Positions 1 to 3,203 of a DNA stretch of 64,000 nucleotides are shown here, piece by piece. The first letter of the stretch is position 1, and the number at the start of each line of letters is the position of its first letter. The stretch is from a phage. The DNA lies in the sequence record PZ019084.1; one strand, written 5' to 3'. A model generated the notes under the pieces. The model made no database searches. It had not been told where the DNA came from and saw only the letters and a program-made list of their open reading frames with translations. The position numbers and the translations under genes are program-made.

Positions 1-535
1 GAATATTGTCACGCTCTCCTCGCGCCATCCAATAAACAGGAACACTTAATATTTCACTCGCATGGTCGCAGTGGTGAGCAAGATCGTCAATATAACAAAT
101 CACGTTATATTTCTCTTTTGCCTTTTTAAATAACTCTTCTTTTGAAGAATCATGACCACACATCATTACTTCTGAGAAGGCACCAGGAAAAAGAGCATTC
201 AAATTAAATTGACGATTCAGCAGAGCGTCAATAGAATCACCCAATGCTGTAACAGCTACAAAATTATAATCTTCTTTTAATTTGTTAATTACACACAGGG
301 CATCTTTATATGGAGACAAGTAACGAATAAAATCTGATCGATTGTATTTTTCAATTAGCTTGACACCGAGTTCTTCATCGCAATTAAAGAGTTTACCTGG
401 AGAAATAAATTTCTCATCTTGGATCATTTTTAAAATATGTTCTAACGGAAGATTATATTTCTGAGCAAAATAAGGAAGGCCTGATTGCCAGCTTAAACAT
501 ACTCCATCAATATCAGTTAAAATAGTAGGCTTCAT
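1..535 (-). CDS. HAD-superfamily hydrolase-like protein; start codon at 535..533, C-terminus lies beyond the window start
   Basis: Hand translation from the ATG at 535..533 gives MKPTILTDIDGVCLSWQSGLPYF... with a DxDGV motif typical of HAD phosphatases. Frame is open to position 1. The ATG overlaps the stop of the upstream ORF (ATGA). Confidence 0.5.
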   Translation of the reverse strand, partial: MKPTILTDIDGVCLSWQSGLPYFAQKYNLPLEHILKMIQDEKFISPGKLFNCDEELGVKLIEKYNRSDFIRYLSPYKDALCVINKLKEDYNFVAVTALGDSIDALLNRQFNLNALFPGAFSEVMMCGHDSSKEELFKKAKEKYNVICYIDDLAHHCDHASEILSVPVYWMARGERDNI

Positions 536-996
536 AGAGAGTCTCTTAATAGATTTAACACATCAATAAATTCAGCTTCGGTTAGTATTGTATCATCTTT
601 TGTTAGACCACTAGCCATGCTGTGCTTCAAAACTTTTCCTTTCGAGGCTTGTAATGCATCGCGAAAGCCCTTGTTTTGGAACGCTGCTTCAAAATATGCA
701 TTTGTGTATAATTCTTTCCACGCCGGGGAATATCTTGAAAACGGAGTTCCAAGCCAGAAGAGGGTCCCACGGTCCTGAGCTCTAGCATAAGACCTTCCAG
801 CTTGTTGGGCGGCAAGCCCGGATAACCCAAATATACGACGTTGCTGTTCAACATTTTTCACCTTACATCCTTGGAGGAATCCTTCGAGACCTCCGAATTG
901 AATACCATCCATGACGAAAGGCCATTGGGCGAAATTACTTAATGCGCATGATGGCCATCTAAAATTGCTTCTTATCTCTAACTCAGACATTTTCAA
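532..996 (-). CDS. NADAR (YbiA/DUF1768-like) domain protein
   Basis: 154-aa ORF; the SNFAQWP..DG..E..Q..K block and C-terminal region align by eye with E. coli YbiA. Recognition from memory, no search run. Confidence 0.55.
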   Translation of the reverse strand: MKMSELEIRSNFRWPSCALSNFAQWPFVMDGIQFGGLEGFLQGCKVKNVEQQRRIFGLSGLAAQQAGRSYARAQDRGTLFWLGTPFSRYSPAWKELYTNAYFEAAFQNKGFRDALQASKGKVLKHSMASGLTKDDTILTEAEFIDVLNLLRDSL

Positions 997-1189
997 TACT
1001 TATAATTTCAACATCAGCCCAATGACCATAGCAAGGAAGACGAAATTCAACTGGCCAGTTAGGGTCCTTTTCTAATATAATAGACTGAACTTGTGGCTCT
1101 TCATATTCATCGGTATACGGACCTTTATACGTTACTTTATATGTGACCTTAATATACTGAATTCCAAAAATCTTATTAATTATATTCAT
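983..1189 (-). CDS. hypothetical early protein (30.x-region)
   Basis: 68-aa ORF in the tightly packed minus-strand early gene array with overlapping start/stop codons. Confidence 0.45.
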   Translation of the reverse strand: MNIINKIFGIQYIKVTYKVTYKGPYTDEYEEPQVQSIILEKDPNWPVEFRLPCYGHWADVEIISIENV

Positions 1190-2593: not shown

Positions 2594-2625
2594 AAATAAA
2601 AAAAAAAGGACTCCCGAAGGAGTCC
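2594..2625 (-). terminator. rho-independent terminator (GGACUCC-CGAA-GGAGUCC hairpin plus U-run)
   Basis: Perfect 7-bp stem with CGAA loop followed on the minus strand by a run of about 10 U; located just after the stop of ORF 2631..2849. Confidence 0.7.
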
Positions 2626-2630
2626 TCAAC

Positions 2631-2849: not shown

Positions 2850-3203
2850 TGCCTGCGCAAGCCCTCAAGGGGAACATAGGTTTTGGATATTTAACGACAG
2901 GATAACCATAAACCCGTCATCATACCTTATAGCTCTTATCTGTTGCACACCGTTAGCTTAAAGGTTCCGGGTCCGATTTCTCGAGGATAAGATATATACT
3001 GATGGATATATAGGCCTTGAGGCGTACTCCCGATTGGCCATCACCTCGGGGTAGCATGCACTTGCCGCTATAAGAATAACATTCAAGAGGTACACCGTAA
3101 AACTGCCGGGGTCTTAAAACTATAATGATTCGCAAATCATTAATCAGACAGTTCGACGGCTCCTCGTTTTAACTTCACACTAAGGCAGTGACTCTCCAAT
3201 AAA

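Follow-up and report, generated by a model that had tools for sequence, protein, structure and literature searches.

NADAR proteins hydrolyse the N2-guanine ADP-ribose that is made by DarT1 (Schuller et al., Mol Cell 2023, PMC11543638), and the position in their last strand is held by His in phage NADARs, Glu in YbiA and Asp in DarG1-type proteins (PMC11543638; PMC11125620). An E. coli phage NADAR (gp30.3) was active in vitro on guanine-ADP-ribosylated DNA and inactive on thymidine-ADP-ribosylated DNA, and T4 is named among the phages that carry it (Toxins 2024, PMC11125620). Mapping in T-even phages traced their resistance to DarTG1 to gene 30.3, which then received the name adfN, for “anti-DarT factor NADAR,” a factor both necessary and sufficient for these phages against DarTG1 (Johannesman et al., PMC11257639; Nat Commun 2025, PMC11825919). 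Deletion of 30.3 in T4 or T2 lowers plating on DarTG1 by ~4 logs, and RB69, in which a frameshift has cost the resident allele its last 15 residues—a defect that correlates with DarTG1 sensitivity—is fully rescued by AdfN supplied ectopically (PMC11257639; PMC11825919). Purified T4 AdfN strips ADP-ribose from DarT1-modified DNA (PMC11257639; PMC11825919), and the T4 mutants E36A and K43A are inactive (PMC11257639). In an independent T4 transposon screen (HIDEN-SEQ preprint; control vs. DarTG1), insertions in 30.3 were lost (log2FC -7.25, adjusted p 0).

In one study, uninfected E. coli was left unprotected from DarT1 by a phage NADAR (PMC11125620). AdfN cannot replace DarG1 outside infection, and its activity in vivo is context dependent (i.e., seen in T-even infection), with hydroxymethylated DNA only hypothesised as the cause.

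Source phage and gene layout

The window—the whole stretch of DNA analysed here, 64,000 nucleotides of the phage record PZ019084.1—derives from a Tequatrovirus (T4-like) genome, as judged by DNA matches and gene order. A total of 988 phage records matched its first 3 kb, with 97.7% identity for the top match, and nearly all of them were T4-like phages of Escherichia, Shigella or Klebsiella, mostly Escherichia. Every gene of the first 6 kb in the ORF list is carried on the minus strand, and the gene order is that of T4 (30.2, 30.3, 30.4 ... 30.9, rIII, 31, 31.1, 31.2, cd, on to pseT). At its left edge the window covers 30.4–30.3–30.2, part of the early cluster that lies between rIII and the DNA ligase gene and is transcribed from the minus strand. 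The features of this edge are as follows.

983..1189, minus strand: gene 30.4, encoding 68 aa and lying directly 5' of 30.3 (ORF list, sequence and T4 annotation)
532..990, minus strand: gene 30.3 (adfN), 152 codons, stop TGA at 534..532; NADAR-fold protein and predicted DNA ADP-ribosylglycohydrolase
883..885, minus strand: codon GAA of E36, a catalytic glutamate of AdfN (from the sequence; invariant in the 45-sequence alignment)
862..864, minus strand: codon AAG of K43, a catalytic lysine of AdfN (from the sequence; at least 90% conserved in the 45-sequence alignment)
622..624, minus strand: codon CAC of H123, the last-strand His that marks the phage gp30.3 NADAR subfamily (invariant in the 45 sequences)
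535..579, minus strand: final 15 codons of 30.3, encoding the C-terminal helix (138-151 in the AF2 model)
532..535, minus strand: ATGA overlap between the 30.2 start (535..533) and the 30.3 stop (534..532), read from the sequence and kept in T4 and close relatives
1..535, minus strand: gene 30.2, first 178 of ~278 codons, cut by the window edge; predicted phosphatase-like member of the HAD superfamily, its cap helical and of C1 type

The reading frame at 532..996 from which the original prediction set out is thus real, with the minus strand to be added and the start corrected: the listed frame begins at a TTG, whereas the start annotated in T4 corresponds to the ATG at 990 and yields 152 aa (MSELEIRS...LLRDSL). 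The ATGA overlap with a second gene that runs off the window, as first described, was also confirmed, with 178 codons of that gene inside the window as against 278 in T4.

Upstream, 30.4 runs 8 nt into 30.3, whose ATG is not preceded by a clear Shine-Dalgarno sequence. In the published T4 HIDEN-SEQ data, insertions in 30.4 were partly depleted under DarTG1 (log2FC -1.79, adjusted p 0.014), and besides 30.3 this was the only significant gene. Because of the 8-nt overlap and the lack of a clear Shine-Dalgarno sequence, we infer that this depletion is probably due to polarity on 30.3 or to translational coupling with it and not to a function of 30.4 itself.

Promoter and terminator scans of positions 1..1000 returned no minus-strand site and no excess over shuffles, after which the idea of either element lying between 30.3 and 30.2 was dismissed. 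Farther along the cluster, a strong terminator-like hairpin of nine pairs (2606..2627, minus strand; GAGGACTCCTTCGGGAGTCCTT, then a T run) is found immediately 3' of the 30.9 stop codon and is kept in T4. The intergenic region between rIII and 30.9 holds an insertion of ~153 nt relative to T4 and phage 310Ecol104PP (window ~2924-3077); the alignments of most close relatives end at 2923-2926, and phage Ge15 alone spans the whole stretch. For this insertion, an Rfam search matched no family, an ARAGORN search gave no tRNA, and the predicted RNA folding was no better than that of shuffles (z -0.98).

NADAR identity and proposed role of gp30.3

The window gp30.3 and T4 gp30.3 are of equal length and identical at 149 of 152 residues (98%). 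The three differences from T4 (V82T, I104F and I125M) are conservative or fall at variable columns of the 45-sequence family alignment, and none is at a known catalytic residue, with M125 two residues past H123. The protein is full length and ends ...LNLLRDSL exactly as in T4, with the C-terminal helix intact. In the AF2 model (pLDDT 93, pTM 0.89), H123 lies within LKHS, in the strand formed by residues 120-123. The window protein thus has both marks of the AdfN subfamily, the last-strand His and a full-length C-terminal helix.

The NADAR relationship itself emerged at the level of the family. Used alone, the window protein gave no match to Pfam NADAR (PF08719) at E <= 1, because Pfam keeps a separate family for gp30.3 (Phage_30_3, PF08010), which the window protein matches at E 1.2e-69. 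Likewise, a phmmer search of the PDB returned no NADAR chain at E <= 1 (only a chance match, E 1.4), an NCBIfam search with the single sequence gave no match, and PHROGs labels the gp30.3 family “unknown function.” As single-sequence searches were uninformative, linking gp30.3 to NADAR by sequence required a family profile, together with the structure model. The HMM built from an alignment of 45 gp30.3 family sequences had E. coli YbiA (2b3w) as its sole match in the PDB (E 0.007), in an alignment that spans the SNFA..WP..DG..E..Q..K block (LSNFakhpFvldG...EGFlQslK vs. FSNFAAWPIKVDG...EHYFQAQK) and pairs the window block LSNFAQWPFVMDG with FSNFAAWPIKVDG of YbiA. Taken individually, 17 of the 45 family members matched PF08719 (best E 1.5e-7), and in their source annotation several metagenomic members are labelled “YbiA (DUF1768 family).” Both a relation to the NADAR profile and the catalytic Glu/Lys pair (E36, K43) are therefore found in gp30.3 or its family. 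Database homologues of gp30.3 include truncated or fused fragments (P0004-P0007, P0013-P0018).

These results bear out most of what the original prediction had said of this gene. The alignment with YbiA across SNFA.WP..DG, made there by eye, is reproduced by the family HMM, and the NADAR identity drawn from it is sustained by the match of the family profile to YbiA, the PF08719 matches of individual members and the confident AF2 model. The proposed check against the Pfam NADAR profile gave a divided answer: it failed for the window protein alone, and it held through the match to PF08010 and through the family members that reach PF08719. Loss of the conserved catalytic residues, named as a result that would speak against the assignment, did not occur, with E36, K43 and H123 all intact. 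Finally, the suggestion of a counter-defence acting on ADP-ribosylated guanine has been demonstrated experimentally for the 98%-identical T4 AdfN (PMC11825919; PMC11125620). The gene is T4 30.3/adfN, characterised in 2023-2025, and in that sense what is said here of the window gene was already known.

We are highly confident that 532..990 (minus strand) is the orthologue of T4 gp30.3/AdfN, a stand-alone NADAR glycohydrolase directed against DarTG1, and that the downstream 30.2 encodes a HAD protein that acts independently of it. The orthology, the fold, the catalytic residues and the C-terminal helix were observed in the window copy itself; enzyme activity and protection from DarTG1 would be expected of it by analogy with the T4 protein. 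In infected cells that carry DarTG1, DarT1 would place ADP-ribose on guanine (N2) of the single-stranded phage DNA and so block replication, and AdfN would cleave the bond between ribose and guanine, using E36, K43 and the phage-type H123, to free ADP-ribose and restore replicable DNA. The phage would, in effect, carry its own copy of the antitoxin activity.

Two other readings of the window copy were weighed. It might be an inactive allele that no longer protects, given that such alleles occur naturally (e.g., the RB69 frameshift that removes the last 15 residues), that several database homologues are truncated or fused, and that the window protein carries three substitutions relative to T4. 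However, its frame of 152 aa is full length and includes the C-terminal helix, all three catalytic positions are retained, and the substitutions are conservative or lie in variable columns, so that we give this reading next to no credence. It is also very improbable, in our judgement, that gp30.3 acts mainly on small molecules and not on DNA—whether soluble ADP-ribose-derived immune signals or intermediates of the riboflavin pathway—as was proposed for YbiA-type N-glycosidases and, before 2023, for phage NADARs generally. Such a role would fit the failure of a phage NADAR to rescue uninfected cells from DarT1, but for the T4 orthologue there is direct biochemistry and genetics for DNA de-ADP-ribosylation and a DarTG1-specific phenotype, and a second, small-molecule activity is unnecessary for explaining the data.

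Within 30.3, a 75-codon internal ORF in another frame (627..854, minus strand) corresponds to 30.3' of the T4 annotation. In close relatives this frame is open, with its ATG often replaced by a Thr or Ile codon and with a stop in one relative; in distant 30.3 homologues it is full of stops. This is hardly the pattern of a conserved gene.

Gene 30.2 and its relation to adfN

The window fragment of gp30.2 is identical to T4 gp30.2 at 175 of the first 178 of 278 residues. It matches PHROG 420 (E 8.7e-72), a family listed as “unknown function,” and literature searches returned nothing specific to gp30.2. Neither the fragment nor its relative P0105 matched a curated Pfam or NCBIfam model at threshold; thiamine pyrophosphokinase models, which appeared in the single-sequence Pfam and NCBIfam searches, were dismissed as matches at chance level. 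Among the 40 sequences of the gp30.2 homologue alignment, weak sub-threshold matches were found to Pfam HAD (PF00702; 12 sequences) and NT5C (PF06941; 6 sequences), and the family profile matched mouse 5'(3')-deoxyribonucleotidase.

As the matches to curated models are only weak and sub-threshold, the superfamily call rests on fold and motifs, and a specific HAD family is not assigned. The HAD motifs all lie inside the window fragment (D8-I-D10-G-V, T96, K132 and D150-D151); in the 40-sequence alignment, DxDGV, K132 and D150-D151 are invariant and T96 is conserved in at least 90%. The structure was modelled on P0105, a full-length near-identical relative, and in the resulting model residues 1-190 form a core of high confidence (pLDDT > 90), helices located between motifs I and II make up a cap, and the tail is of low confidence (pLDDT below 50 for 226-231 and 239-279). 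With a Rossmann-like core fold in this model and all four catalytic motifs present, membership of gp30.2 in the HAD superfamily appears well supported, in line with the HAD-family call originally made for this second gene.

Most likely, gp30.2 would be a Mg2+-dependent phosphatase that acts on a nucleotide or another small phosphomonoester. The 5'(3')-deoxyribonucleotidases appear to be its closest relatives, and a nucleotidase is our best guess. The C-terminal ~90 residues (L001:3672-3950; ~190-279 of P0105), which lie outside the window, vary in length and sequence; a short motif shared by many homologues close to the terminus, G-(I/T)-E-Y-L-x-(R/Q)-Q-P-T, may serve for docking.

From the ATGA overlap, the original prediction had suggested that the two genes form a functional pair, and it is this part that is not supported. 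As a two-enzyme module, AdfN would free ADP-ribose or a phosphorylated derivative, and gp30.2 would then act on what is released or on a related intermediate, with the two proteins kept in fixed proportion by coupling at the ATGA. The overlap is indeed present, 30.2 directly follows 30.3 in all close relatives, and in 37 of the 78 loci with 30.2 a 30.3 gene lies at most 1.6 kb upstream, including some quite divergent T4-like phages; the restriction of AdfN activity in vivo to T-even infection, on its face, also allows for a phage-encoded helper. However, under DarTG1 in the HIDEN-SEQ screen, 30.2 was neutral over 71 insertion sites (log2FC -0.12, p 0.61) while 30.3 stood at -7.25, and AdfN alone strips ADP-ribose from DNA in vitro. 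These published T4 data thus do not point to one phenotype for which both genes are required, and 30.2 is dispensable both in the laboratory and under DarTG1. Given the neutrality of 30.2 insertions, we rejected gp30.2 as the AdfN helper that T-even dependence might suggest, and the same screen leaves no non-essential T4 gene in that role.

The linkage data tell against the module as well. Across the IMG/VR loci with a 30.3 homologue, 30.2 occurs within 6 kb in ~25 of 80 (close relatives and some divergent T4-like phages) and is absent from that range in the other ~55, most of the distant 30.3 homologues being without a neighbouring 30.2; conversely, 41 of the 78 loci with 30.2 have no 30.3 within 1.6 kb upstream, and in six genomes the two genes are 54-65 kb apart. 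No family-wide linkage was found beyond general synteny. An overlap of exactly 4 nt, moreover, is routine in this region and carries little meaning, being annotated at 8 of the 26 junctions from alt to alc in T4 (some overlap occurs at 15 of the 26) and recurring in the first 6 kb of the window at 30.4/30.5, cd/cd.1 and cd.1/cd.2. A two-enzyme module for DarTG1 is already largely refuted, and we consider it quite improbable. Rather, gp30.2 acts independently of the anti-DarTG1 role of AdfN, and the ATGA overlap comes from the compactness of a cluster in which translation is typically chained from gene to gene. In a different connection, gp30.2, with a nucleotidase-like active site and a disordered tail that bears the recurring motif, would itself be an enzyme of counter-defence or of the nucleotide pool, and its frequent adjacency to AdfN would stem from a shared role against an ADP-ribose- or nucleotide-based host system other than DarTG1; this seems to us unlikely.

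The six IMG/VR T4-like cases of wide separation between the NADAR and HAD genes (L042/L097, L047/L121, L079/L115, L068/L156, L081/L134 and L030/L145) have a layout unlike that of T4.

Comparison with characterised NADAR and HAD proteins

AdfN is a clear example of a phage “orphan antitoxin” enzyme, one that reverses a modification placed on DNA by host immunity, and with an intact adfN this Tequatrovirus should, by analogy with T4, resist DarTG1. The neighbouring gp30.2 is a conserved and widespread HAD phosphatase-like protein of a model phage. Its sequence relation to the 5'(3')-deoxyribonucleotidases (NT5C, HAD superfamily; 2jao, 6g2n, 3bwv) is marginal (E 0.015), and it differs from them by an extra, low-confidence C-terminal tail of ~90 residues; any membership in NT5C proper would be tentative.

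For the NADAR protein, the nearest described system is T4 gp30.3/AdfN, with which the window copy shares its neighbours (30.4 upstream with the 8-nt overlap, 30.2 downstream with the ATGA) and the residues E36, K43 and H123, and from which it differs by V82T, I104F and I125M only. E. coli YbiA (2b3w) stands farther away: its family, PF08719, is not reached by the window protein on its own, it has Glu at the last-strand catalytic position where the window protein has His, and it is a chromosomal gene product in a LexA-controlled operon that has been linked to N-glycosidase activity on riboflavin intermediates (PMC11125620). In contrast to the DarG1-type NADAR antitoxins (BC4488 family; e.g., Geobacter lovleyi NADAR, 8bat, and E. 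coli C7 DarG1), AdfN is an orphan, unlinked to any DarT; its last strand bears His and not Asp, it is shorter (152 vs. 219 aa), and it does not replace DarG1 in uninfected cells.
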